From the sequence record PZ166176.1: DNA of 64,000 nucleotides; one strand, given 5' to 3'. The notes beneath the pieces are model-generated. The model saw only the letters and a list, made by a program, of their open reading frames with translations, did no database searches and was not told the DNA's origin. A program made the translations under genes and the position numbers. This document shows, one piece after another, positions 1-35,671 of this stretch. Position 1 is the first letter of the stretch. Each line of letters starts with the position of its first letter. This DNA is from a phage.

Positions 1-189
1 ACCGACCACTGGAAGATCTGGAGATGTTCTAACACGATAACCTGCCTGGAAAGCTCCAATATCGCAGACCTCTTCTAAATCATATTCTTCCCATAAGGCA
101 CGACCACTATCGGTGTCTGTTCGGAATGTTCTAATCCCACTATCTGCACTTAAACCTGCACCGCTTACAAAAATCACTCGTCTTGGCAT
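1..189 (-). CDS. Sir2-family (sirtuin-like) NAD-dependent protein, N-terminal part only; gene runs off the window start
   Basis: Minus-strand frame from ATG at 189..187 translates MPRRVIFVSGAGLSADSGIRTFR...GRALWEEYD, resembling the sirtuin GAGIS..SGIPTFR / GLW motif; absent from ORF track because truncated. Confidence 0.45.
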   Translation of the reverse strand, partial: MPRRVIFVSGAGLSADSGIRTFRTDTDSGRALWEEYDLEEVCDIGAFQAGYRVRTSPDLPVVG

Positions 190-677
190 TCTTCCTCCTC
201 ATAATCATCATAATCTTCGTCATCCAAATCGTACACTTCGTCTTGAGAATAACTCACTTCAAAGTAAATATCAAACTCCGCAAACAAACGTAGAATGTTG
301 GACATGCTATAATAATTATCGTAGGCAGATTCAGCTTCATAGTAAACATAAAGCAAATGGTTAGCCTTATCATCTTCCAAATATTTCCCGTCTGCATACG
401 CATAGTCTGCATATGCTTTACCTGCATCTTCCACAAGAGAACGATCAAGCAGAGTAGGAAATGGTTTCTCTTTTTCTTTTAGTTTGCTCACCAACCAGTG
501 TGCAATATTATGCCAATCTGCATCCTCTCCGCTGAAGCAGCTTGCGACTTCGCCAAACTTGGCATCTCCTAAGTCCCCGCTGATAGTGATCATGGTTGAA
601 CTATTGTAACCACAAGTTTCGCAATTTGAACAACTGTTGTGCACATGAATTTCTACTTGAAACATATTTCCTCCCAT
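174..677 (-). CDS. hypothetical protein (CxxC-containing N-terminus, strongly acidic C-terminus)
   Basis: Track ORF, 167 aa, co-oriented with neighbours; no motif recognised. Confidence 0.45.
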   Translation of the reverse strand: MGGNMFQVEIHVHNSCSNCETCGYNSSTMITISGDLGDAKFGEVASCFSGEDADWHNIAHWLVSKLKEKEKPFPTLLDRSLVEDAGKAYADYAYADGKYLEDDKANHLLYVYYEAESAYDNYYSMSNILRLFAEFDIYFEVSYSQDEVYDLDDEDYDDYEEEECQDE

Positions 678-723
678 AAAAGAAAAGCCCCCTGAAACAG
701 GAGGCTTTGTTCAGATGCTGGCA

Positions 724-1377
724 CTATACCAGACTTTGTAGGTATTTGTCAAGGGCTTCTTGATCGCCTTGACAAACATAGCAACGGAAGTCTTGAGCCG
801 AAGGTTGTTTATTTTCATCCCAGTCCCAATAAACATTACCCTTATAACGTGAACCAGGAAACTCAAAAGAGGCTGTATGTGTAATGTATCCTGGGCCACC
901 AGTGAAATCACAGAATGAGAATTGGGGGTATGCCGCCTTTACTGCCTCAATAAACCAAGCTTTACGATCTAAAGCTTCATTGATGCTATACGCATGTCTC
1001 TCCATTTCTTCCCACGTTTTCCAGACACTTCTCTCATCAGGAGAAAAGACAAGCCATTCTGGAAGGTATAGAGTGTCATAGTAATCATCATATTCGATCT
1101 CGGAGGCGCACGAAGCTGACTCCTCCAGTTTTGAGTAATCAAAAGCAGAATATACCCACCAACCATCTTCCAGTAACGCTTTGATAGGGACGAAGCCTTT
1201 ATCAGCATATTGATCGAATTGTTTGACACGGTGGCTTGTGCAGTCTTCAAACTCACATTCTAAACGATATGCACCTTTTCGACGAGCCTCAAGACCGTGT
1301 GTACTGAAAATAACAACACTTCCTTCACCATCATTACGATCTACTTGATAAGCAACCACTGGTTTTGAATTTGACAT
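724..1377 (-). CDS. hypothetical protein
   Basis: Track ORF, 217 aa; stop/start abuts next gene. Confidence 0.5.
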   Translation of the reverse strand: MSNSKPVVAYQVDRNDGEGSVVIFSTHGLEARRKGAYRLECEFEDCTSHRVKQFDQYADKGFVPIKALLEDGWWVYSAFDYSKLEESASCASEIEYDDYYDTLYLPEWLVFSPDERSVWKTWEEMERHAYSINEALDRKAWFIEAVKAAYPQFSFCDFTGGPGYITHTASFEFPGSRYKGNVYWDWDENKQPSAQDFRCYVCQGDQEALDKYLQSLV

Positions 1378-2060
1378 TATTTCTCCTTATCTAGAAGATT
1401 GTTAGACAAAAACACTGCACGAGCAAAACCACGTGCGGTTAGTGATCTAAGTTGTTTTGTTTTTGCACTAGCTCCACCTAAGCTTTTCCAACCCCAGAAG
1501 CAGCCTATATGATCTACTGGTTTCTTCACTGGTTGAACAAAACCATTGCCGTGCCAAATACAAGTTTTCTTTGTATACCCATCACGGGTAGGCATTTTAG
1601 GATGAAAGCTTCCTTCCTCTTCAAACAAATACCCACCATACTCATAAGGATCAAAGTAAAAATCGGGTTTACGCCATAAGGTTGAAAGTTTACCTACTGG
1701 GTTCTCAATCATCCAAGGAACATTATATTTGTTACCCAAAGCTTCCACTACACGAATATTAGCTAAAGCTTCATCCAATTCCTCTGTGCTGCGTTCGTGT
1801 TTGCTACCACTACCTGCTAACATAGTGCAAGGTGGAAATCCAAAAATAATATCGGGTTTAGGTATCCCATGATCTTCAGGGTTGAATGTAGAATCTATCC
1901 AGGCATTCACATAGGTTATGTTTGGGTGCTCCATCCTAACCTCGTATTTACCGTGATCCCCTTCATCAGCGTTTACACAAAAACACTTGTGACCTGCTTC
2001 GGCATAACGTAACACCATGATCCCAGATCCGTCAAACATAGACAAAACTGTTTTACTCAT
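1377..2060 (-). CDS. putative SAM-dependent DNA cytosine-C5 methyltransferase-like protein
   Basis: FDGSG (motif I-like), GFPPCT (PC motif IV-like), ENPVG (motif VI-like); start moved to internal ATG (MSKTV) preceded by GGAGGGG; catalytic Gln of PCQ replaced by Thr so function uncertain. Confidence 0.35.
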   Translation of the reverse strand: MSKTVLSMFDGSGIMVLRYAEAGHKCFCVNADEGDHGKYEVRMEHPNITYVNAWIDSTFNPEDHGIPKPDIIFGFPPCTMLAGSGSKHERSTEELDEALANIRVVEALGNKYNVPWMIENPVGKLSTLWRKPDFYFDPYEYGGYLFEEEGSFHPKMPTRDGYTKKTCIWHGNGFVQPVKKPVDHIGCFWGWKSLGGASAKTKQLRSLTARGFARAVFLSNNLLDKEK

Positions 2061-2466
2061 TACCCCTCCATTCAAGACAAGCCATAACTTTACGCCAATC
2101 ACTTTCTGTAAGAAAAATCTCGTTTGCTTTCTTCCACAAATCTAAATCGTGAAGGGTTGGAATACGATATGTTAGTTCACAGAATCTATGCTCTTCTTCT
2201 GTAATATAACCAAAATGCAGAGCCACATCGTGAAACCAACACCAACCATGCATCTCTCGAACAACATGGTCATGTTGAGACATTATTTTATGCCGTAAAC
2301 CTAACCAACAAGGAACAGATACTTTAGTAGTCTTTAATCTGTGATCAACAGTATTAGAGTATTCAATAATAGCTGTCAGTTTCAATCGTGCTTTTTCTAA
2401 ATCCTCATGCGTCACTTTGAAATAACTTTCTGAAAGATATCCACACATATTAATAACCTCCTTCAA
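2053..2466 (-). CDS. hypothetical protein
   Basis: Track ORF, 137 aa. Confidence 0.45.
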   Translation of the reverse strand: MKEVINMCGYLSESYFKVTHEDLEKARLKLTAIIEYSNTVDHRLKTTKVSVPCWLGLRHKIMSQHDHVVREMHGWCWFHDVALHFGYITEEEHRFCELTYRIPTLHDLDLWKKANEIFLTESDWRKVMACLEWRGNE

Positions 2467-3391
2467 AAGGCTTTACTACATGTTGATTAGCTTTAAAACG
2501 TTCAACATAGTCGTTTTCGCCCATGTTTTCATATAGCTTAATAACAACATAAAAGTTTTCCCAAGCATATTCCCTAAACCAACCACTAGTGATGGACGTG
2601 CAGACTTTAGATAAAGCCATTATAAAACTTTGCTTAGGGGTTGGACCTCCGATCTCTCCACCGAAAGGAATTTGTGAACGTTCCAAAGCCAAAACACACG
2701 CTTCTTCATAAACACCTAACAGGCGCACATGTTTTGGTTGAGCAAAAAACTTTTCTTTGCTGGTCATAACTTCACTTCCATCTTTCATATAAGATTTATA
2801 TGCCGGAGCATCCATTACCGCGATTGCTTCATGGATAGAATCATGATCATAAACATACGGAACCTCATCACCTTTAAAAAAGTCTTTACTTTTTACGTTT
2901 AAGTTCGGATGAGAGTAAGTGTATGTTTCTTTCTCACGCAACTCATAAATACTCTTAAGATTTTCTGGGATCTTTGCGCCCAGTGACCGCATGAAATGAA
3001 TATCTTTCATAGTTTTAAAGAAGTGAGGACTATCCTTTTTAAAACGATGACTCATTTTAAGAAGGTAGAGCACATCTAAAGGAGCAACAACATGTCCAGC
3101 GTAAGTTCGACGAACATCATCAGAATCTTCACAATAACTAATCAAAGCTTCTGTGCTATCTCCTTGAGAAGCAATATCGTATTCCAAATGTGCACCAGCT
3201 ATCATTTTGACATGGCCTTTGTTTCCTTTACGTTCTACAAGTTCAACAAACTCATCTTGAGAGAACATTTTTGATAATTCTTCCCACTCTTGTTCTGTAC
3301 ACAGGTAATCTAAATCTACACAAGGGCGATACAAGTCTTTTCCCATATCCATAGCATGAATTTGTAATGCACGGCTACCAATTAACACCAT
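2450..3391 (-). CDS. hypothetical protein (weak nucleotidyltransferase-like GS...DxD pattern)
   Basis: Track ORF 313 aa; N-terminal LIGSRAL...VDLDYL vaguely resembles a pol-beta-type NTase motif but spacing is atypical. Confidence 0.45.
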   Translation of the reverse strand: MVLIGSRALQIHAMDMGKDLYRPCVDLDYLCTEQEWEELSKMFSQDEFVELVERKGNKGHVKMIAGAHLEYDIASQGDSTEALISYCEDSDDVRRTYAGHVVAPLDVLYLLKMSHRFKKDSPHFFKTMKDIHFMRSLGAKIPENLKSIYELREKETYTYSHPNLNVKSKDFFKGDEVPYVYDHDSIHEAIAVMDAPAYKSYMKDGSEVMTSKEKFFAQPKHVRLLGVYEEACVLALERSQIPFGGEIGGPTPKQSFIMALSKVCTSITSGWFREYAWENFYVVIKLYENMGENDYVERFKANQHVVKPFEGGY

Positions 3392-3421
3392 AATATTTCT
3401 CCTCTATTGGTTGATAGGTTA

Positions 3422-3450
3422 AGTTTATCAAGCTTCCAGATTCCTGTCAA
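3422..3450 (-). promoter_or_regulatory. sigma70-like promoter (TTGACA-17-TAAACT) for gene 2450..3391
   Basis: Reverse complement reads TTGACAggaatctggaagcttgaTAAACT immediately after terminator hairpin. Confidence 0.45.
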
Positions 3451-3473
3451 TAAAAAACCCGCCGAAGCGGGTT
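3451..3473 (-). terminator. rho-independent terminator
   Basis: Minus strand: AACCCGCTTCGGCGGGTT hairpin followed by TTTTT. Confidence 0.55.
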
Positions 3474-3481
3474 ATTATTTA

Positions 3482-3754
3482 CTAACACATTGAGGAAGAA
3501 GAGATCCAAACACCTCTTGTGGTTAAACCATTTTCATCCAACTCTACACCATAATCTTCACAAATGAAATCAATATAGTGATCTGCGGCTGGCGTTCCTG
3601 TAGGGTAATAAGTTTCTCCGTTACCGTAGTCACCTATCCAAGCTTGTTCCTGAAACTGTTCACAAAGTTCTTCAATCTCCTTACGAAACTTTCTTTGTGC
3701 TTGTTCCATCTCTTTAACTTTCTTTTTTATCAGCAGTTCGCCTTCAGACTCCAC
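3482..3754 (-). CDS. small protein, member of W-x-SSS-C C-terminal tail paralog family
   Basis: GTG start after AAGGAGAG; C-terminus ...GVWISSSSMC. Confidence 0.5.
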   Translation of the reverse strand: MESEGELLIKKKVKEMEQAQRKFRKEIEELCEQFQEQAWIGDYGNGETYYPTGTPAADHYIDFICEDYGVELDENGLTTRGVWISSSSMC

Positions 3755-3763
3755 AATCTCTCC

Positions 3764-3982
3764 TTAACAGCTACTACTGTGCCAAACGCCTTGAGAATTA
3801 ACGACGAAACCATCATCACCTTCACCATAACAAGAAGAGGATTGCCAATCTTCAAAACAGATTGCGTCATTTTCTAAACTAAGACCAAAACCAGCATCTT
3901 CAGCTTCTTTTGTAAGTTCGTCCACTAAAGCCATAATAGCTTGGGCTTTTTCAGTTAATTCTTCAACATTACGATCACTCAT
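3764..3982 (-). CDS. small protein, W-x-SSS-C tail paralog
   Basis: Start set at internal ATG (MSDRN) overlapping stop of upstream gene; C-terminus ...GVWHSSSC. Confidence 0.5.
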   Translation of the reverse strand: MSDRNVEELTEKAQAIMALVDELTKEAEDAGFGLSLENDAICFEDWQSSSCYGEGDDGFVVNSQGVWHSSSC

Positions 3983-4296
3983 TAGTATTTCTCCTCTGGT
4001 TGGAAAACTGAACGACAAGCCCACATACTAGCTTCTTTTAAATGTTTAATAGCACAACGGATTTGATCAATACGTTCGTATGTAAGATCTAATTCTTTTT
4101 CTGTGCCGTCAAAAGACCCATGATATGCTTCACAATACTCTTCCTCTAAAGCTTTGAAGATTAAACCTAAACGCTCTTCTGCATCTTTAATAGCGTTAAC
4201 CTTGCCAATCTTATCGTCAGTATGCGCCTTATAACCTTTGATATCTTCGATTCCCACTTTACCTCCTATTAACAACTTAAAGAAGATGGATGCCAA
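3982..4296 (-). CDS. hypothetical protein
   Basis: Track ORF 104 aa. Confidence 0.45.
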   Translation of the reverse strand: MASIFFKLLIGGKVGIEDIKGYKAHTDDKIGKVNAIKDAEERLGLIFKALEEEYCEAYHGSFDGTEKELDLTYERIDQIRCAIKHLKEASMWACRSVFQPEEKY

Positions 4297-4466
4297 TTTG
4301 TTCCAGTATTCTCATTTTCATCTTCTGGATCATAATAGCCACCCATCCCATATTCAGGGGAGAAACGGAAACCTTTACCAGTCTCATCTGCTAACTGCTC
4401 TGCTTCCGCTAAAGCCTCATAAGCTGCTTTTACGGCTTCTTCTACTGTTTTAAACTTGGTCGTCAT
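4269..4466 (-). CDS. small protein, W-x-SS-x-SC tail paralog
   Basis: C-terminus ...NWHPSSLSC. Confidence 0.45.
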   Translation of the reverse strand: MTTKFKTVEEAVKAAYEALAEAEQLADETGKGFRFSPEYGMGGYYDPEDENENTGTNWHPSSLSC

Positions 4467-4740
4467 AAAATTTCTCCTCTCCTAAAGACATGTTGACATG
4501 AAATGCACGATATGTAAATTCGTTGTCCGTTGTGTTTGAATAAAACTCAAATTGAACAACACCGTCTTGAGAAGACAGATACATGCCAATTTGAACTGTT
4601 CCTTCTGGTACCAGGTAAGCATACTCTGGACGTAGTGTTACATTGTAAAAATAAAGTTCCCCAACACCCATTTCATCCCAAGCTTCCCAAGCGGTAACGA
4701 AGTTACTTTCAAAACTTGTTACTGATCCGAACTCTGCCAT
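4450..4740 (-). CDS. hypothetical protein
   Basis: Track ORF 96 aa. Confidence 0.45.
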   Translation of the reverse strand: MAEFGSVTSFESNFVTAWEAWDEMGVGELYFYNVTLRPEYAYLVPEGTVQIGMYLSSQDGVVQFEFYSNTTDNEFTYRAFHVNMSLGEEKFYDDQV

Positions 4741-5231
4741 AAAACCTCCTCAATCTTGTAGTTTGACTCCATCTCCAACACATTTCCACGAACGTCTCTC
4801 CGAAGAAAGGCATAAGCTTTATTAGGTATTGTAGACTCATATTTAACCATATCTGGTACAGCAAAAGATACTACTACTCCTGCTGGGCTTCTGTCAAGAG
4901 CCTTATTAATATTTCTAAGGATATCGTTAGCCAAGATTTCTGCCAATTCTCCAAGAACGGTTTCGGTTATATCTTTATATCCCATTAAGTATTTGTTGAT
5001 ATCTTTCATCTCTGTATTGTTCAGAGTATAATCCAAAGGATAGAAATTCAAAGCGGAGTCACTTTTATGTGTCCACATGAAATGCACCCGATCCGAGCAG
5101 AATCGTAACCCTCTTTGAAGAATATCTTCTACAACAGGCAGAATTTCTTTTGTCACATCATTAACCATGTTGTAATCTAAGATTTCTGCCAAGTTTGTTC
5201 TTTGTTCACCACGTTTACGTTTAGGAATCAC
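4719..5231 (-). CDS. hypothetical protein
   Basis: Track ORF 170 aa. Confidence 0.45.
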   Translation of the reverse strand: MIPKRKRGEQRTNLAEILDYNMVNDVTKEILPVVEDILQRGLRFCSDRVHFMWTHKSDSALNFYPLDYTLNNTEMKDINKYLMGYKDITETVLGELAEILANDILRNINKALDRSPAGVVVSFAVPDMVKYESTIPNKAYAFLRRDVRGNVLEMESNYKIEEVLWQSSDQ

Positions 5232-5826
5232 TTGTTATTGCCCTCATTACCAAAGGTCGTAGAAAATCGTAAATCTCTTGTTTTGTTTTCCCACGAATGT
5301 TTAAACAAGGAACATTATTGGCTTTAGCTATCTTCCAAGCCGTAGCTGTTCCACCTTTTGCATCTCCATGTTTATCAGTATTAGCACAAGCCAACAAGAA
5401 ACATGATGGAGCAGGATTCTCCAAATCTCTACCTAACACTTGATGCACATTACGTTGGTGCAATTTTCTAGCACCCTGCTTAAGCTTTTCATAGGCTGGG
5501 TGAACATCTTTGATCCATTGCACAGAAATAGCATAGTTCATTGTATCTGGTTTTGCAAGAACAATAACATCCCCTGGAATCTGATTACCTTTGAAATTTT
5601 CCCAAGGAACATAAATCTCCTTGTTAGTAGGATTTTCAGACTCTTGGACACCTGTTTCAAAAGCAGAATCACTACCCTCTGCCTTCCCAGACCTTAATTT
5701 AAACCCAAGGTTTGAAAGCCATTTCCCTATGCCTACCATCAAAGCCCACTCTTCTTCGGATATGTCTCTACTTCCAACTCCCGTATAGAACAGTTCTGCC
5801 ATAATCACCTCAACAAGTAATTTCAA
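5221..5826 (-). CDS. DprA/Smf-like SLOG-domain (Rossmann-fold nucleotide-binding) protein
   Basis: TGVGSRD...RSGKAEGSDSAFETG matches the GSR...SGxAxGxDxxA signature of DprA/LOG-type SLOG domains. Confidence 0.45.
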   Translation of the reverse strand: MKLLVEVIMAELFYTGVGSRDISEEEWALMVGIGKWLSNLGFKLRSGKAEGSDSAFETGVQESENPTNKEIYVPWENFKGNQIPGDVIVLAKPDTMNYAISVQWIKDVHPAYEKLKQGARKLHQRNVHQVLGRDLENPAPSCFLLACANTDKHGDAKGGTATAWKIAKANNVPCLNIRGKTKQEIYDFLRPLVMRAITSDS

Positions 5827-6118
5827 AAGGTGTATAGGGTTCCGTATTTCTCATGATCCAAGGACTGCTAGGATTGCTCGGATCATAAGGGCCAAAAGGT
5901 TTTATGGTAGGTTGTGTTTCTTTCTTCTGAATCTCTTCAAAAATACGACGAAGTTCAGAATATTCTTGATCCACCATAAGATTCGGTGCATCTGATTCTA
6001 CAGCTTGCAGGTTATCTTCCTTAAGAACAATCTCACGAACAAGATTAACATCTTCTGTTTCTAAGATAACTTCTTTACGGATATTGCCTACACTTTGAAT
6101 AATTGTAATCTTATACAT
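5810..6118 (-). CDS. hypothetical protein
   Basis: Track ORF 102 aa. Confidence 0.45.
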   Translation of the reverse strand: MYKITIIQSVGNIRKEVILETEDVNLVREIVLKEDNLQAVESDAPNLMVDQEYSELRRIFEEIQKKETQPTIKPFGPYDPSNPSSPWIMRNTEPYTPFEITC

Positions 6119-6861
6119 TAATCCTCCTCAAGAGTTGAATAAAATTGAAGACCACCGTCCATATCGAAATAAGCAAATGTTAAGTTATTATTGAACACAG
6201 ATCCAGTATCCATATAAACACGATTCGCATTGATAATAGGTGTTTTTACATAAGAGTGTCCATGAAACACATAATCCACACCCATCACAACAGGAAGTTT
6301 CATTCCCTCTTTAGCACAATCCACCATATCTCTGTCCCACATAAGTGCTTCAGCAAAACGGTTTTCCTGTGTTTTTGTCATCTTCGAAGTGTATTCTGGA
6401 ATATCTGTTACAGGGAGATATTCCAAAGAAGACGGATACCCACCATGAATAAACGCAAGTTTCATGCCTCTGTAGTTAACAATGAGAACAACAGGTAAAT
6501 CTTCTGTCATCATTGCTAAGGCTGTAGCTCCTTCTTCACCACATTCTTCAAGGACCGTATATCCTCCATTTTGATACCAACACTCGAAGTAGCTACGATC
6601 TCCTTCCAGCATACCTTTAATCATCATGTCTTCATGATTTCCACGAATAGCGTAGCGATTGTGTTTACGAGTAAATTCTAAAACACAACGAAAGTTTTGC
6701 TTTCCACGGTCAGTAAGATCTCCTAGAGATACAACCACATCTGTATCTCGGATACCTAACTTTGCCTTTCCTTTTTCATACAAATTATAACAACCGTGTA
6801 GATCTCCAATTATAAAAAGATCTTGATCGCTTTTAACAGTAATTTCTCTGTGTATGATCAC
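6118..6861 (-). CDS. Ser/Thr protein phosphatase (calcineurin-like metallophosphoesterase)
   Basis: GDLHG, GDLTDRG, GNHE and HGH metal-binding motifs in canonical order. Confidence 0.75.
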   Translation of the reverse strand: MIIHREITVKSDQDLFIIGDLHGCYNLYEKGKAKLGIRDTDVVVSLGDLTDRGKQNFRCVLEFTRKHNRYAIRGNHEDMMIKGMLEGDRSYFECWYQNGGYTVLEECGEEGATALAMMTEDLPVVLIVNYRGMKLAFIHGGYPSSLEYLPVTDIPEYTSKMTKTQENRFAEALMWDRDMVDCAKEGMKLPVVMGVDYVFHGHSYVKTPIINANRVYMDTGSVFNNNLTFAYFDMDGGLQFYSTLEED

Positions 6862-7187
6862 TTATCCTCCTCAAAATCTAAGAAAATAAAAATATTCACC
6901 TTTCCTTCAATCTCTTGTTCTAAAACAAGATCGGCAAATTCTGCATAAGCTTTCTCTTCAACTTTTTCAATATGTTCTGCGGCATCTTTAAAAGGCGTAT
7001 CCCCATCCACCTTTACTAATAAGAAAAGAGATCGCATTTCGACGCTTTTACTGTTACGAGGAAGGAAATCTACAGCTTCAACAATTCTCCAACCCAAATA
7101 GCCAGGGGTTTTATGAATCTCCCCTAAATACTTTTCTAAGATTTTACGACCCTCGTCGATAAGGGCTTGTTCTGTAGTAATTTCCAT
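6858..7187 (-). CDS. hypothetical protein
   Basis: Track ORF 109 aa. Confidence 0.45.
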   Translation of the reverse strand: MEITTEQALIDEGRKILEKYLGEIHKTPGYLGWRIVEAVDFLPRNSKSVEMRSLFLLVKVDGDTPFKDAAEHIEKVEEKAYAEFADLVLEQEIEGKVNIFIFLDFEEDK

Positions 7188-7197
7188 TCCTTCCTCC

Positions 7198-7788
7198 TCA
7201 AATTATTAACGAAACCGCATGACTAAATCTTGGTTCAGATATAACCTCTGCTACAGTCACATATGTATCGTGCAGCCAAAAAGATTCTACTCTACAAACA
7301 CAAATACCGTTGATAATGAAATCTATACAGGCTTTATTATTTTCGCACACTTGTTGACTATAAACAACTCCTAAAGAGTCATAAAGTGATCTCACTGTTG
7401 CTACCATTTCATCTGTTTCGTCTTCCTGTGAAACAAAGAAAACGAATACAGACAAGTTATTAGCGAAAGTATTGCTATTCTCTACTTCAACCGACTTACA
7501 AGGTAAAAAGGAGTAATATTTACCGTTAGGTATCAATTTCGCCTCAACCTGGTTAAGTACGCTTTGAGATGGTTTTGTTACATAAAAAAGATTTTCTGTT
7601 GGGTTTTCAACATTACTCCTTACTATGCAACGAGTGGGGTTCGAAGGATCAAAAACATGATCGAAATCGACACACACAGGTAAGTTAACAACTTTAAACT
7701 TTTTGCTAAGAATGCTTACTGCTGTAAAAATCAAACCAGCATTTATTTTGCCAGTGAAAGTTGAACGCATAACTACTCCTCGGATCAT
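7198..7788 (-). CDS. hypothetical protein
   Basis: Track ORF 196 aa. Confidence 0.45.
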   Translation of the reverse strand: MIRGVVMRSTFTGKINAGLIFTAVSILSKKFKVVNLPVCVDFDHVFDPSNPTRCIVRSNVENPTENLFYVTKPSQSVLNQVEAKLIPNGKYYSFLPCKSVEVENSNTFANNLSVFVFFVSQEDETDEMVATVRSLYDSLGVVYSQQVCENNKACIDFIINGICVCRVESFWLHDTYVTVAEVISEPRFSHAVSLII

Positions 7789-25515: not shown

Positions 25516-26241
25516 TTACTTATTAATAATACCTGCAATATTAGGTTTGACAAAGGTCGATGGTTTCATGATCTTACCTTTATCATCAAAGAACACATAC
25601 ACTTTCTGTTTTTCATTATAAACAGCATGAACACCAGTGTATGCCCCTTCTGGACGATTGGCATTTCGTTCTTCAATTGCAGCGCATTCTTGTGCAATGG
25701 CTGAATCGATATCTGAAGTTTTCCAAGTTTTCAGCAACTGTTGTTTAGTTGGATACTTGGAATCATTACTTTTCAATACCTCTTTAATAACTTTCTTTTC
25801 TGGATATTTTGAACGGATTAGAGTGTCACGAGACATACGCATAATACCAGCAGCCATTAGTGCCATTTGAACTGGCTCTGTAAATGTTTGTTCCAAAGCA
25901 TCAAAATCAGTATATACAGTTGGAGTAAAAACATCGCCTACAGCATAGTCCAAGAAATTCATCGTATGTTCTTCACCAAAGAACATGTAAGTAAGATAAC
26001 TGGATACTACAAAAATATCCGCTGCTGCATCCAAGAGTTCTACATGATCGTTTACTTTCGCGGCTGTTTCATACTCTTTAAGCTCTTCACGAACGAACCC
26101 GATTTGGGACATAAATAGCTCTTGAGTGAATTCAGGTTGTTCACCACCTCGTGCTTTGGCATTCCAATCAATCACGTGCTTTGCTGCATTTTTGAAAAAT
26201 TCAGTATCGAATTTAATATCTTTAAAAAAATTCTCGATCAT
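25516..26241 (-). CDS. MazG-like nucleotide pyrophosphohydrolase (tentative)
   Basis: EQPEFTQELFMSQIGFVREELKEYE...DHVELLDAAADIFVV resembles the all-alpha NTP-PPase EExxE...D metal-binding pattern. Confidence 0.4.
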   Translation of the reverse strand: MIENFFKDIKFDTEFFKNAAKHVIDWNAKARGGEQPEFTQELFMSQIGFVREELKEYETAAKVNDHVELLDAAADIFVVSSYLTYMFFGEEHTMNFLDYAVGDVFTPTVYTDFDALEQTFTEPVQMALMAAGIMRMSRDTLIRSKYPEKKVIKEVLKSNDSKYPTKQQLLKTWKTSDIDSAIAQECAAIEERNANRPEGAYTGVHAVYNEKQKVYVFFDDKGKIMKPSTFVKPNIAGIINK

Positions 26242-28164: not shown

Positions 28165-28491
28165 TTAAGCGTTAAGTTCGTTGTTGAGTTCGTAAATCTC
28201 TTCTTGAAGAGCATCAATCTCTTCCTCCAAACGGGAGATCTCTTCTTTTAGATATACCATTTCGGATTCTTTCTCTTCTAATTCATTTTCAAATTTTACT
28301 TTATTAGCCTCATTTTCATAATTCAGTTCAGCGTAATCATCACGCATTTGTTCAATAAGATGAATCAGAGACAAGATGTAATTGTCTCCCGTTTCATCAC
28401 GCCACTCTTCACCGTGACGGAGAACGGTAATTCGTCCAGTATCTTCATCTAAAATTGTCTCATATTTACGATCATCTGTATAAATCTGCAT
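28165..28491 (-). CDS. hypothetical coiled-coil protein
   Basis: Glu/Leu-rich heptad-like C-terminal half. Confidence 0.4.
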   Translation of the reverse strand: MQIYTDDRKYETILDEDTGRITVLRHGEEWRDETGDNYILSLIHLIEQMRDDYAELNYENEANKVKFENELEEKESEMVYLKEEISRLEEEIDALQEEIYELNNELNA

Positions 28492-28500
28492 TATTTCTCC

Positions 28501-28905
28501 TTATTGAAGTTTAAGTGAACCACGAAGACGTTTCTCTTGCTGATCACGGATATATTGTGGAACCTCGTGAATTGAATCATTACCGTGCCTATTTTCAACA
28601 ACTAAAGAGATAACTTGATAACCAAACTCTTCAGCAAGAGCTAAATAAGGTTTAAGTTCTTTCTCTGTGGTTGAAGTATTAGAAACAATAATCTTGTTAA
28701 GATTAGATGCCATAGCATCACGAACAATACCCTGACACCATGCGTGTGCTTTACCTACATTTTCTGGCTTCCAATCGTAAACACCACTCTCTGTGTAATG
28801 ATATTGATCTGCCTCACAGATAGGCCAATAACCTTCAGAAATAATTTCTGCTACTGTAGATTTACCAGCACCTGAAACGCCACGTAAAATGATAAGTTGT
28901 TTCAT
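28501..28905 (-). CDS. P-loop polynucleotide 5'-kinase (T4 Pnk kinase-domain-like)
   Basis: Walker A GVSGAGKST; overall pattern parallels the T4 Pnk kinase domain (P-loop, then IIVSNTS.. block). Confidence 0.55.
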   Translation of the reverse strand: MKQLIILRGVSGAGKSTVAEIISEGYWPICEADQYHYTESGVYDWKPENVGKAHAWCQGIVRDAMASNLNKIIVSNTSTTEKELKPYLALAEEFGYQVISLVVENRHGNDSIHEVPQYIRDQQEKRLRGSLKLQ

Positions 28906-29838
28906 TTATCCTCCAAAAAAGTTTTCGATTTTTTCACGTCGTTCTTGCTGATTTAAAGCAGCCCATTGAATCTTCGTAAAATTATTTTGAATCCATTCTA
29001 ACAAAGCGTAATATTCTTCGTCAACCATTTGTTTGGCATTTTTTGGATTATCCCAAATCAGATCCCACTTTTTATCTCCACCGCGCATAAGAAACTTCTT
29101 AGTAAGATAGTGTGGTGATTTAATTTTTAAAAGTAAGTTGAACGGATAGTTTGTTTCACGAACTACAAACCCTTCGTGTTTACAATGTTTAGACATTTCA
29201 ACAACATCTGAAAACTTAACCATTGGATGAACTTCAGGACGCTTAAATTTGGTGACAGAAGCAATTCCATCAAGAGCACCTTCAGGTAACATAAAACTTG
29301 TCCCATCAGGATTTTGAATTCTGGCACCAATTAAGTATGCACCTGGTTCTTCTTCGACAATATGCGGATCAGAAGGATCACAGATTTCAAAAAGGAAAGT
29401 TGCTTTTGCACTCTCTGTCCATTTGATGAAATGTTCTATGTCATCACACTCTGAAACAATATGATTCTTTGCAATACTTGCAAAATCTGATTCAAGGCTT
29501 CCTGTTGTCGATACAATAAGTTGACCTTTATATACACCTACAGAGGCCATAAAACCATTTATTTTACGAACCACATCTACAAGTTCATCCGCTGGTAGAT
29601 CTGTGCCATTCTCAAAACGATTAAAAATCTTAGTGAAAGGCCAAATAACAACATTGTCATCAGCATCAACAACGATTCCGCGACATTCTAGAAGACGAGA
29701 ATCAATGCTCCATAAGTTATCCCAGAAAACTTTGTTCTTATACTTAAGAACAGATAGACCAGAATACTCTCCTTCTTTATATGTTTTCTTATGAACTAAA
29801 CCTTTTTCAACCAAATCGTCGCAATTAAATTTAGCCAC
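28906..29838 (-). CDS. RNA ligase-like nucleotidyltransferase
   Basis: Motif I KINGFMAS (KxNG as in Rnl1/tRNA-ligase type), motif IV EGFVVRE, motif V LLLKIK; abuts the kinase and phosphoesterase genes. Confidence 0.5.
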   Translation of the reverse strand: MAKFNCDDLVEKGLVHKKTYKEGEYSGLSVLKYKNKVFWDNLWSIDSRLLECRGIVVDADDNVVIWPFTKIFNRFENGTDLPADELVDVVRKINGFMASVGVYKGQLIVSTTGSLESDFASIAKNHIVSECDDIEHFIKWTESAKATFLFEICDPSDPHIVEEEPGAYLIGARIQNPDGTSFMLPEGALDGIASVTKFKRPEVHPMVKFSDVVEMSKHCKHEGFVVRETNYPFNLLLKIKSPHYLTKKFLMRGGDKKWDLIWDNPKNAKQMVDEEYYALLEWIQNNFTKIQWAALNQQERREKIENFFGG

Positions 29839-29839
29839 A

Positions 29840-30391
29840 TTATTCTCCTTTGATTATTTTGTGATGGTCTACAGTCACGATATCTCGTTTACTCATCATA
29901 GAAATTATCTCATCAAAATGCAAGATTTTTCCGTGTGCATCCCAACCCACATCTAACATTTTACCATAAGCTTCATCAGGGAAAGATCCGTGGGAATGCC
30001 CGTGTAGCATGATTGATCCACGACCTTGTTTATTCCAGGAGGCCATAGGGTAATGGCTTAAGACGAAGAACAGCTTCTGATATTTCACTTCGTCATAATA
30101 CACCACTTCTCCATACTCTGCAAGCACTTCTCGGTGTTTGCTGTAGTCATGGTTCCCAACACAGTAGGTGATATCTCCTTGAAGACGGGAAGCAATTTTA
30201 CGGGTATCTTCTTCAGTTCCGAAACAGAAGTCGCCCAAATGCCACATCTTAACACCAGGAGTAGTAGCACATTTGTTCCATGCTTCGATCAAGGCTTCTG
30301 TCATGTGGTCCATATCTTCCCACGGACGATATTCAGGAGCAAACTCTCGAATACGTTTATGCATAAAATGCAAATCGCTTGTAATAAACAT
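29840..30391 (-). CDS. calcineurin-like metallophosphoesterase (RNA-end-healing phosphatase candidate)
   Basis: DLHF, GDFCFG, GNHD, HGHSH metal-binding motifs. Confidence 0.6.
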   Translation of the reverse strand: MFITSDLHFMHKRIREFAPEYRPWEDMDHMTEALIEAWNKCATTPGVKMWHLGDFCFGTEEDTRKIASRLQGDITYCVGNHDYSKHREVLAEYGEVVYYDEVKYQKLFFVLSHYPMASWNKQGRGSIMLHGHSHGSFPDEAYGKMLDVGWDAHGKILHFDEIISMMSKRDIVTVDHHKIIKGE

Positions 30392-30747
30392 TAGTATAAT
30401 CCCTCGCTAAATAATTCATGGTCGTGACCATTACGCTCATGGTCGATCTGGTCAGCATTTTCCGCGATGATGTAAGCATCCGCACGACTCCACCAATTGT
30501 AATACTGATCGATAAAGCCTTGATTATCTGGTGTGCACAAAGTTTTGTTGATTACACCTGCTTCTTTCAACACGTTTAACTGTGCATATAGTACAGGATT
30601 TGCATGTCGAACACAAGGAATAATTAATTCTTCACCATTATTCAAAATATACTTATTTGCAGCACAGACGATAACACGTTGCGCATAATGACCCTCACCC
30701 ATCCAGGTAAGAGGTTGGTAACAAATGTTGTTTTCAATACCACTCAT
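30391..30747 (-). CDS. hypothetical protein
   Basis: Track ORF 118 aa; start overlaps upstream stop. Confidence 0.45.
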   Translation of the reverse strand: MSGIENNICYQPLTWMGEGHYAQRVIVCAANKYILNNGEELIIPCVRHANPVLYAQLNVLKEAGVINKTLCTPDNQGFIDQYYNWWSRADAYIIAENADQIDHERNGHDHELFSEGLY

Positions 30748-30906: not shown

Positions 30907-31251
30907 TTAGTAGTGCACACGAATCATTTTAATACCATAACGCTGCATGAATTCTTTTGCAAGCATGAATTTATCCCCAGCGGCGGGATTAGAAGTATGC
31001 ACGAAAATGGTAGGTGAACCAAAGCAAGGTTTACCAAACGCCAGAAGTTCTTCCAGGTGCAGGAAAACATCATACCCATCTTGGTCTGACTCCATACCTA
31101 AATCATTGTCAAAAGACCACTCGGTTACTCTTCGATACAGTTTAGCAGGATCATTGAGAAAGGCCATAGCTTCTTGTGACGTTTTAAACCAAATTGCATC
31201 TTCCTGTCCATAGTCGGCTGGGTTCCGCATATCATCTATCCAAACTTTCAT
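30907..31251 (-). CDS. hypothetical protein
   Basis: Track ORF 114 aa. Confidence 0.45.
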   Translation of the reverse strand: MKVWIDDMRNPADYGQEDAIWFKTSQEAMAFLNDPAKLYRRVTEWSFDNDLGMESDQDGYDVFLHLEELLAFGKPCFGSPTIFVHTSNPAAGDKFMLAKEFMQRYGIKMIRVHY

Positions 31252-35005: not shown

Positions 35006-35080
35006 GGCCCTGTAGCTCAATGGGAGAGCTGTCGGCTCATAACCGATAGGTAGCTGGATCGAAACCAGCCAGGGCCACCA
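35006..35080 (+). tRNA. tRNA with CAT anticodon (resembles tRNA-Ile2 / elongator Met)
   Basis: Hand-folded cloverleaf: acceptor GGCCCTG/CAGGGCC, anticodon loop CTCATAA, T-loop ATCGAAA, encoded CCA. Confidence 0.7.
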
Positions 35081-35082
35081 AC

Positions 35083-35157
35083 GTCTTTATGGTGTAATGG
35101 ATAGCACAGGAGTCTTCTAAACTCTTAGTCAAGGTTCGATTCCTTGTAAAGACACCA
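35083..35157 (+). tRNA. tRNA-Arg (TCT)
   Basis: Acceptor GTCTTTA/TAAAGAC, anticodon loop CTTCTAA, T-arm CAAGG-TTCGATT-CCTTG, CCA. Confidence 0.7.
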
Positions 35158-35158
35158 G

Positions 35159-35342
35159 AACATTTTAACATGAATTAGCTCAAGTGATTTGAACCCACTA
35201 CTGATCATGGTGGCAGAGAATGAGGCAAGTATGTCAGACATTATAAACAAAGGCCACGGTTATATTAGAAGACATAAATGCTCGAAGAGCACCGTTCGTT
35301 GAGAACGGGGGTTGGTGGAGTCACCATTCATGGTAAAATGTT
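35159..35342 (+). ncRNA. structured RNA of about 185 nt following tRNA-Arg
   Basis: 5' AACATTTTAACATGAAT pairs with 3' ATTCATGGTAAAATGTT (one mismatch); no ORF. Confidence 0.35.
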
Positions 35343-35353
35343 TTAAAAAACTA

Positions 35354-35384
35354 TTGACAACTAACATTATTTTATGTTAGATTA
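35354..35384 (+). promoter_or_regulatory. sigma70-like promoter (ctaTTGACAa ... TGtTAGATT)
   Basis: TTGACA and extended -10-like element upstream of tRNA-Ser. Confidence 0.45.
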
Positions 35385-35391
35385 TAAGTAT

Positions 35392-35482
35392 GGAAGGGCA
35401 AATCGACGTGGCGACGAAAACGGTCTTGAAAACCGCCGAGCTTGAAAGAGCCTTGGGAGTTCGACTCTCCCTCCTTCCGCCA
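35392..35482 (+). tRNA. tRNA-Ser (TGA), long variable arm
   Basis: Acceptor GGAAGGG/TCCTTCC, anticodon loop CTTGAAA, long variable arm, T-arm GGGAG-TTCGACT-CTCCC, G73-CCA; D-arm atypical. Confidence 0.55.
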
Positions 35483-35486
35483 GATT

Positions 35487-35572
35487 GGTAGATTGGTGAA
35501 ATGGTAGCCACGACAGTTTGCTAAACTGTAGTCGGAAACGGCGTGTAGGTTCGAGTCCTACATCTACCGCCA
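35487..35572 (+). tRNA. tRNA-Ser (GCT), long variable arm
   Basis: Acceptor GGTAGAT/ATCTACC, anticodon stem ACAGT/ACTGT loop TTGCTAA, variable arm AGTCGGAAACGGCGT, G73-CCA. Confidence 0.7.
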
Positions 35573-35578
35573 AATTAA

Positions 35579-35664
35579 GATGAGTTGGCTGAATGGTTTA
35601 AGCGGCGGACTGTTAATCCGTGTTCGAAAGAACGATATAGGTTCAAATCCTATACTCATCGCCA
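35579..35664 (+). tRNA. class II (long variable arm) tRNA with GTT (Asn) anticodon; identity ambiguous
   Basis: Acceptor GATGAGT/ACTCATC (7 bp), anticodon stem GCGGA/TCCGT loop CTGTTAA, variable arm GTTCGAAAGAACGAT with GTTC/GAAC stem, T-arm ATAGG-TTCAAAT-CCTAT, G73-CCA. Confidence 0.55.
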
Positions 35665-35671
35665 GAATTAT

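Follow-up and report, generated by a model that had tools for sequence, protein, structure and literature searches.

A translationally coupled kinase, RNA ligase and metallophosphoesterase cassette in a phAPEC8-like coliphage: a likely RNA-repair module

The cassette

The DNA considered here is a stretch of 64,000 nucleotides (sequence record PZ166176.1), referred to below as the window, from a phAPEC8-like myophage of Escherichia coli belonging to the genus Phapecoctavirus (Stephanstirmvirinae). At 28501-30391 its minus strand carries a cassette of three genes encoding a metallophosphoesterase, an RNA ligase and a polynucleotide kinase, which we regard as a likely module for the healing and sealing of RNA ends, co-translated and situated in the early/middle non-structural arm of the phage. 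A first-pass annotation, made from the letters alone, had described three abutting minus-strand genes at this position; open reading frames (ORFs) are found at exactly these coordinates, and they contain all of the motifs it had quoted.

The gene at 29840-30391 encodes a binuclear metallophosphoesterase of the aq_1665/COG4186 subfamily (183 amino acids, aa) with a putative role in RNA end healing. It is followed by the gene for an ATP-dependent RNA ligase of the Rnl1/Trl1 clade (28906-29838; 310 aa), which has a GTG start and Lys92 as its predicted adenylylation site, and then by that for a stand-alone 5'-OH polynucleotide kinase (28501-28905; 134 aa), which consists of a P-loop domain only and has no phosphatase domain. 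The three genes are tightly packed and translationally coupled. The phosphoesterase-ligase junction reads ...AAA GGA GAA TAA T GTG, with AAGGAG upstream and a single base between TAA and GTG, and at the ligase-kinase junction, ...GGA GGA TAA ATG, the kinase ATG directly follows the TAA of the ligase, whose final codons contain GGAGGA. A 118-aa gene further upstream overlaps the start of the phosphoesterase as TAATG.

Relationships of the three proteins

The ligase matches the Pfam family RNA_lig_T4_1 (PF09511) at 2.7e-15, scoring 57.3 bits where the gathering score is 28.3, and all three proteins have PHROG matches (2e-56, 9.3e-70 and 6.5e-56 for kinase, ligase and phosphoesterase, respectively). 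With the NCBIfam T4 RnlA equivalog model the ligase reaches 23.9 bits against a cut-off of 242.25; since it passes the Pfam threshold and misses the equivalog cut-off, it is a member of the PF09511 family and not an equivalog of T4 RnlA, and on this comparison it is best described as a distinct subfamily within the Rnl1 clade.

Searches of the PDB with single sequences gave zero matches for the ligase and P-loop matches only for the kinase, so that profiles were required. A ligase-family profile of 18 diverse homologues matched T4 Rnl1 (2c5u) at 4.4e-17 over the whole nucleotidyltransferase domain, and no Trl1 structure at E <= 1. The ligase motifs are RKINGF, with Lys92, EGFVV (222-226) and LKIKS (237-241), and over 18-47 homologues the residues of motifs I, III, IV and V (K92-x-N94-G95, E151, E222-G223 and K238/K240) are invariant. 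K92, E151, E222-G223 and K238/K240 align with K99, E159, E227-G228 and K240/K242 of T4 Rnl1. In the N-terminal part R53 and K70, both invariant, and F72, at least 90% conserved, align with T4 Rnl1 R54, K75 and F77, residues upstream of motif I that count as essential in the mutagenesis literature on that enzyme.

The AlphaFold model of the ligase (predicted local distance difference test, pLDDT, 91.9) tells the same story. In the structural comparison T4 Rnl1 scored 21.9 and the fungal Trl1 ligase domains 19.7-21.0, followed by archaeal Rnl3 (~16), Rnl2/Rnl5 (~12), DNA ligases (<=9.1), the Pnkp ligase domain (8.2) and capping enzymes (<=7.4), and the Foldseek ranking has the same order. Because T4 Rnl1 and Trl1 rank above the DNA ligases, the capping enzymes and the other RNA ligase classes, we assign the protein to the Rnl1 clade of RNA ligases. 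Identity as a DNA ligase or a capping enzyme was considered and rejected, the nearest structures being T4 Rnl1 and fungal tRNA ligase, and the RNA-ligase-type enzyme of the first-pass annotation was thus recovered by structure and profile searches alike. The C-terminal helical region of the model (242-307, ~68 aa) is about half the length of that in T4 Rnl1.

The kinase consists of nothing but a P-loop domain (Pfam AAA_33, 2.7e-10), with the P-loop GVSGAGKST at residues 9-17. Among 38 homologues G12, G14, K15, D33 and R106 are invariant; D33 aligns with the catalytic Asp35 of T4 Pnk, and R106 aligns in a KRNSKRG segment where the correspondence to T4 Pnk R126 is ambiguous. The best solved relative of a profile of 38 homologues is Capnocytophaga Pnkp1 (4xrp, 6.9e-7), followed by two Trl1-type fungal kinase domains (6e-5), T4 Pnk (7e-5, ~1e-4), the CthPnkp kinase (3e-4) and seryl-tRNA(Sec) kinase. 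The alignments to RNA-repair kinases are near full-length, whereas gluconate, adenylate and NR kinases align around the P-loop only, and a match to a deoxynucleoside monophosphate (dNMP) kinase PHROG is confined to residues 1-35. Identity as a dNMP kinase was rejected, since that match is limited to the P-loop and the best full-length matches are to RNA-repair kinases; by these profiles the protein appears closer to the polynucleotide kinases than to nucleotide or small-molecule kinases, in keeping with its earlier description as Pnk-like. In the record of Pseudomonas phage phiPsa381 the homologue of the kinase extends over two short ORFs of the annotation (our locus L007, 6905-7436; tblastn match at 7041-7415), which suggests a frameshift or a mis-called gene.

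The phosphoesterase carries the motifs SDLHF, LGDF, GNHD and HGHSH and matches Pfam Metallophos at 3.1e-5, above the gathering score. D6-x-H8, G53-D54, G79-N80-H81, H113 and G131-H132-x-H134 are invariant among 45 homologues, so that all metal ligands of the calcineurin-like enzyme predicted earlier are kept, and the binuclear metal site is, as read from these residues, complete. The protein, whose model has a pLDDT of 95.2, is matched by Aquifex aq_1665 (1xm7; 1.9e-22 by profile, 2.4e-8 by Foldseek) and distantly by MJ0936, LpxH and lambda phosphatase (Foldseek E 1.2e-2). It does not belong to the lambda-PP/PrpE/Pnkp phosphatase subfamily.

Linkage, gene order and fusions in other phages

The ligase family occurs in 726 of 50,697 phage records, with Escherichia, Pseudomonas, Streptomyces, Vibrio, Klebsiella and Acinetobacter among the hosts, and 2142 relatives of the ligase were found among 1.84 billion representative proteins. 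In all seven GenBank phages of different genera (a Vequintavirus, a Pakpunavirus, a member of the Ackermannviridae, an Otagovirus, a Thalassavirus, a Shenzhenvirus and a Saclayvirus) the three genes lie within ~4 kb, in varying orders and orientations. These seven and 80 loci from IMG/VR make up a set of 87 ligase-bearing phage loci. Of these, 79 have a kinase no more than 3 kb from the ligase, including 12 where the two are fused in one ORF, 69 have a phosphoesterase within that distance, and 63 have both. The order metallophosphoesterase-ligase-kinase is seen in 39 loci, kinase-ligase-metallophosphoesterase in 16 and ligase-kinase-metallophosphoesterase in five, the rest having several rarer orders. 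Counting all genes that accompany the ligase across the 87 loci, there are 83 with a kinase, 73 with a phosphoesterase, 32 with a DNA ligase in the flanks, 14 with MazG, 12 with Sir2 and 11 with cREC; as 83 and 73 stand against 11-14, kinase, ligase and phosphoesterase would form the core and the others lineage-specific accessories. It is the shuffling of gene order across lineages, not the number of loci, that carries the weight of this evidence, and it argues strongly for a functional link among the three genes.

Fusions point the same way. Among the database representatives, close relatives of the kinase (1e-28 to 1e-30) form one chain with the ligase, with either protein coming first, and there are also metallophosphoesterase-ligase fusions and kinase-metallophosphoesterase-ligase proteins of 700-812 aa; the N-terminal half of the latter is Pnkp-like (TIGR04075, partial). 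Such fusions indicate that some metallophosphoesterase belongs with the ligase and the kinase, the subfamily present in the cassette being tied in by synteny only. That the cassette phosphoesterase might itself be the fusion-type domain was rejected, as it has zero similarity to the metallophosphoesterase domain of one kinase-metallophosphoesterase-ligase fusion, P0209.

A single-chain protein of this architecture is found in Thiomonas sp. (WP_461592865.1, 757 aa; our loci L091/L092, 6001-8274), in which a Pnkp-like N-terminal half containing kinase and metallophosphoesterase is joined to an Rnl1-like ligase domain that is not of the Pnkp type. Next to its gene are those for a further metallophosphoesterase and for an RNA ligase of family PF09414, and the genes called there include no Hen1.

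In several lineages the cassette is adjoined by genes for phosphoribosyl pyrophosphate (PRPP) synthetase and nicotinamide phosphoribosyltransferase, sometimes also by a second RNA ligase. These genes for the salvage of nicotinamide adenine dinucleotide (NAD) flank it in Pakpuna-, Otago-, Thalassa- and Saclay-viruses, and such neighbours fit a counter-defence region.

Genomic setting and neighbouring genes

Over the 3.3 kb around the cassette the window shares 99.5% identity with Escherichia phage ECO340P1 and 98.8-99.2% with ESCO37, Schickermooser and ESCO13. The cassette is part of an extended run of non-structural genes that all point the same way and include those for ribonucleotide reductase, exonucleases, RdgC, a MazG-like enzyme and an ATP-dependent DNA ligase; this run is divergent from the plus-strand late structural genes and from a tRNA array. 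This array, to which the first-pass annotation had also drawn attention, consists of 10 tRNA genes at 35006-36710, on the strand opposite to the cassette and 4.6 kb from it. Among other phages, tRNA genes were found within the flanks (up to 8 kb) in 30 of the 60 loci scanned, and this nearness of the cassette to tRNA genes, counted without a formal null model, is suggestive. A scan of 25-35 kb of the window with promoter and terminator consensus sequences gave 33 hits where 30.0 were expected and 8 where 6.3 were, which is the level of shuffled sequence, so boundaries of transcription units cannot be drawn. Inside the array the gap between tRNA-Ser and tRNA-Asn, at 35572-35579, is 6 nt as compared with ~224 nt in Schickermooser and ESCO13, which points to a small deletion.

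A fourth gene probably belongs to the cassette as an accessory member. It lies 0.5 kb upstream, outside the coordinates of the first-pass annotation, at 30907-31251 on the minus strand, and encodes a 114-aa cREC (cyclic-phosphate-processing receiver-like) protein (Pfam cREC_REC, 7.3e-17) in which the acidic REC-type residues (WxDD, FDNDLG), SNP and K are invariant. The family is predicted by the Aravind group to open cyclic phosphates, and it stands beside the ligase in the Entero- and Klebsiella-phage loci that make up its 11 occurrences. The ESCO5 label 'putative RNA ligase and tail attachment protein' sits on the cREC orthologue and receives no support from the Pfam match.

Membership of the 118-aa gene between cREC and the phosphoesterase (30391-30747, minus strand) is uncertain. 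Its product belongs to the T4 Arn.3 family (phrog_839, 4.1e-47), with homologues in 1526 phage records that include the T-even arn.3, and had no Pfam or PDB match; it was rejected as a defined repair component, the function of the family being unassigned and no more than 3 of the 87 loci having the gene beside the ligase. The 'anti-restriction nuclease' label that some records give it looks like a carry-over from the neighbouring T4 arn name. Directly downstream of the kinase, at 28165-28491 on the minus strand, is a gene for a 108-aa coiled-coil protein, which ESCO5 labels 'DNA polymerase I' and PHROGs 'hol-like chemotaxis'; both names are unsupported by the present findings.

A MazG-like nucleoside triphosphate pyrophosphohydrolase (25516-26241, minus strand; Pfam PRA-PH, 2.7e-6) may, by analogy with the rV5-type neighbourhood, be a further accessory. 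It is homologous to navn_52 of phage navn (our locus L004, 8047-8760), a gene next to the navn sirtuin; the label 'putative Sir2-like protein' on navn_52 appears wrong, the true Sir2 being navn_51. Sir2 is represented in the window by a single homologue, the N-terminal part of a gene that runs off the edge (1-186, minus strand; GAGLSADSGIRTFR in translation), a 61-aa fragment matching Pfam SIR2 at 8.7e-5, and the navn Sir2-like protein has 51% identity to the window over 49 aa at 183..37 (tblastn). It lies ~28 kb from the cassette, and among the ORFs scanned at 18-33 kb there was no sirtuin next to the cassette. RefSeq ESCO13 names the Sir2 orthologue 'DNA methyltransferase'.

The window also contains a second metallophosphoesterase, of NinI/lambda-phosphatase-like type (6118-6861, minus strand; 247 aa). 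It matches the fusion P0209 at 3e-5 (BLASTP) and is another enzyme that might heal RNA 3' ends. Over the leftmost ~7 kb (1-6900) the ORF coordinates depart from the +36 offset to ESCO13 that is kept around the cassette, and the NinI-like gene would be expected at ~4230-4975 from ESCO13; the broken offset implies an insertion of ~1.9 kb relative to that phage. Among the phages that came up in the comparisons, records B15, C3, C12 and C11 of 'Campylobacter phage' differ very little from Phapecocta-, Justusliebig- and Vequinta-viruses of E. coli, and their host labels are doubtful.

Proposed function and alternatives

The overall reading of the locus in the first-pass annotation is supported by these results: the cassette most likely serves to re-join RNA, probably tRNA, which would have been cut by host defence nucleases. 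A ribonuclease of the host or of a competitor would cut RNA, most plausibly in a tRNA anticodon loop, leaving a 2',3'-cyclic phosphate and a 5'-OH. The metallophosphoesterase, possibly helped by the nearby cREC protein, would open and remove the 3'-terminal phosphate to give a 3'-OH, the P-loop kinase would phosphorylate the 5'-OH using ATP, and the Rnl1-type ligase would self-adenylylate on Lys92, move the AMP to the 5'-phosphate and seal the break. A role against anticodon nucleases in particular, which had been proposed on account of the tRNA array, would be consistent with this scheme.

The obvious comparison is with T4, where Pnk (pseT) and Rnl1 (rnlA) form a tRNA repair pathway that counters the anticodon nuclease PrrC. 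The kinase of the cassette, however, stands alone and has no counterpart of the HAD phosphatase domain of T4 Pnk, so that the candidate for 3'-end healing is a metallophosphoesterase where T4 has a HAD enzyme, and the ligase is shorter than T4 Rnl1 (310 against 374 aa), its C-terminal helical domain being smaller. In combining kinase, metallophosphoesterase and ligase for RNA repair the cassette is like the Clostridium thermocellum Pnkp/Hen1 and Capnocytophaga Pnkp1-Rnl-Hen1 systems; no Hen1 is named in the RefSeq ESCO13 region matching the window, for which no Hen1-directed profile search was made. Unlike the fungal and plant Trl1 (LIG-KIN-CPD), the cassette has no 2H cyclic phosphodiesterase domain. 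The earlier comparison to a T4-like or Pnkp-like healing set carries a reservation as regards the phosphoesterase, which is of neither the HAD nor the Pnkp (lambda-phosphatase-like) type.

The closest precedent is the sirtuin-centred RNA-repair neighbourhood predicted in phages rV5 and Mydo (Iyer et al., Viruses 2022, 14:1977). It shares with the window a T4-like tRNA ligase, cREC, a nucleotide kinase, MazG and a calcineurin-like phosphoesterase, which in the window all lie within ~6 kb, and the rV5-like orthologues are 36-57% identical to the window proteins. There are two differences: the sirtuin of the window is outside the neighbourhood, at the window edge, and the phosphoesterase, 'occasional' in that account, is consistently found close by in our set of loci. 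The GenBank record of Schickermooser already lists a 'putative polynucleotide kinase', a 'putative RNA ligase' and a 'putative phosphoesterase or phosphohydrolase', and BASEL-derived annotations give the same three functions; since sister-phage records and Iyer et al. carry it, our reading of the cassette is not new.

Some genetic information is available for the rV5-like phage Bas54, which was studied by transposon sequencing in a preprint. Insertions are tolerated, at 140-260 reads per TA site on average, in each of bas54_0207 (sirtuin), 0208 (hypothetical; it occupies the place that the cREC homologue has in phage navn), 0209 (RNA ligase), 0210 (polynucleotide kinase) and 0211 (putative phosphoesterase). 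The orthologous cassette is thus dispensable on E. coli K-12, which would fit an accessory, host-dependent function; as the Bas54 orthologues are 36-47% identical to the proteins of the window, these data bear on its cassette indirectly.

Several points weigh against this interpretation. The 87 loci are phylogenetically non-independent. In the ligase the position of T4 Rnl1 Lys119 is taken by an invariant Thr112, and in the kinase that of T4 Pnk Arg38 by His36, at least 90% conserved; Arg38 and Arg126 are essential residues of T4 Pnk. The all-helical C-terminal domain of T4 Rnl1 (~255-374) is said to confer its tRNA specificity, and because the corresponding part of our ligase has about half that length, tRNA is put forward as the substrate with due reserve. 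The only close solved relative of the phosphoesterase, 1xm7, is a structural-genomics protein of unassigned function, and its other structural matches are distant, so it is the genomic context that suggests a part in RNA 3'-end healing, and from it we infer an enzyme acting on 2',3'-cyclic-phosphate or 3'-phosphate ends. Moreover, the metallophosphoesterase domain in the bacterial single-chain fusions is lambda-phosphatase/PrpE-like, unlike that of the cassette, and it is the phosphoesterase at 6118-6861 that is of the subtype fused to ligase in those proteins. The Bas54 orthologues were not conditionally required in the tabulated comparison (log2 fold change +0.3 to +0.4, adjusted p 0.75-1.0). 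Finally, the literature searched held no biochemistry on any member of the ligase, kinase or phosphoesterase subfamilies, and searches on COG4186, or on Phapecoctavirus together with RNA ligase, yielded nothing useful.

Of the alternatives, the one that survives best, though we consider it unlikely here, is an NAD-dependent variant of Trl1/Tpt1-like repair (Iyer, Burroughs, Anantharaman, Aravind 2022), in which cREC or the phosphoesterase would open the cyclic phosphate to leave a 2'-phosphate, the ligase would seal the break, a sirtuin would take off the 2'-phosphate in an ADP-ribosyl transfer that uses NAD+, and the ADP-ribose by-products would be cleared by MazG, cREC or the phosphoesterase. 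That the same gene set was described in rV5 and Mydo, that Sir2 does lie beside ligase, cREC and kinase in rV5-like and Klebsiella-phage loci, that cREC and MazG-like genes are near the cassette of the window and that NAD-salvage genes flank related cassettes in the four virus groups named above all speak for such a pathway, as does the ligase domain of Trl1, structurally as close to our ligase as T4 Rnl1 is. The sirtuin 2'-phosphotransferase activity is, however, a prediction only, and Sir2 and cREC accompany the ligase far less often than kinase and phosphoesterase do. With the Sir2 gene of the window unlinked to the cassette, and the ligase profile reaching T4 Rnl1 and no Trl1 structure, the variant is less likely for this phage than sealing by a T4-like route.

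More doubtful still is a function in DNA end processing, in which kinase and phosphoesterase would heal 5'-OH/3'-phosphate DNA ends for a neighbouring DNA ligase and the Rnl1-like enzyme would act on DNA or on RNA-DNA junctions, with mammalian PNKP and bacterial HD-Pnk/LigB-type clusters as parallels. T4 Pnk acts on DNA too. An ATP-dependent DNA ligase gene, separate from that of the RNA ligase, is indeed found by Pfam scan 1.1 kb downstream of the cassette, such a ligase recurs in the flanks of 32 of the 87 loci, which is weakly suggestive, and the phosphoesterase has a weak NCBIfam match to the ligase-associated PdeM family (E 0.0034). The kinase, however, is fused to an Rnl1-type ligase and not to a DNA ligase, its best relatives are RNA-repair kinases, the nearest structural relatives of the ligase are all RNA ligases, and the three-gene set persists in the majority of loci, which lack a DNA ligase.

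Least probable of all is phage housekeeping, be it the repair or processing of the phage's own tRNA-array transcripts or of RNAs cut by phage nucleases, or a gp63-like, non-catalytic part in tail-fibre attachment: the PHROG name carries the T4 gp63 label 'tail fiber attachment catalyst' and the cassette is often near tRNA arrays, but it is part of the non-structural arm, across from the late structural genes, and the tolerance of the Bas54 ligase, kinase and phosphoesterase orthologues to transposon insertions, unlike the catalytic domain of T4 rnlA, where insertions are not tolerated, makes an essential morphogenetic or tRNA-maturation role unlikely.

Biological significance

Reconstitution of RNA healing and sealing with the three proteins would assign a function to the phosphoesterase family and test an existing prediction of comparative genomics; it would not overturn current thinking. 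We tentatively suggest, with rather more reserve than for the module as a whole, that metallophosphoesterases of the aq_1665/COG4186 type make up a class of enzymes for RNA 3'-end healing that had not been characterised before, acting as 2',3'-cyclic phosphodiesterase and/or 3'-phosphatase. If so, they would represent a third structural solution beside those of T4 Pnk, which uses a HAD domain, and of Pnkp, which uses a lambda-phosphatase-like one, and the trio of kinase, Rnl1-like ligase and metallophosphoesterase, present in more than 700 sequenced phages of many genera, would be a widespread modular counter-defence against tRNA-cleaving immunity.

Such immunity is a major branch of bacterial antiviral defence, represented by PrrC, RloC, PARIS, retron-associated nucleases and Cas13a. 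The answers of phages to tRNA cleavage, in the form of tRNAs of their own and of RNA repair, help decide host range, and the cassette is a compact and widely distributed candidate for the repair answer, with its ligase family occurring in therapeutically relevant phages of E. coli, Klebsiella, Pseudomonas, Acinetobacter and Vibrio.

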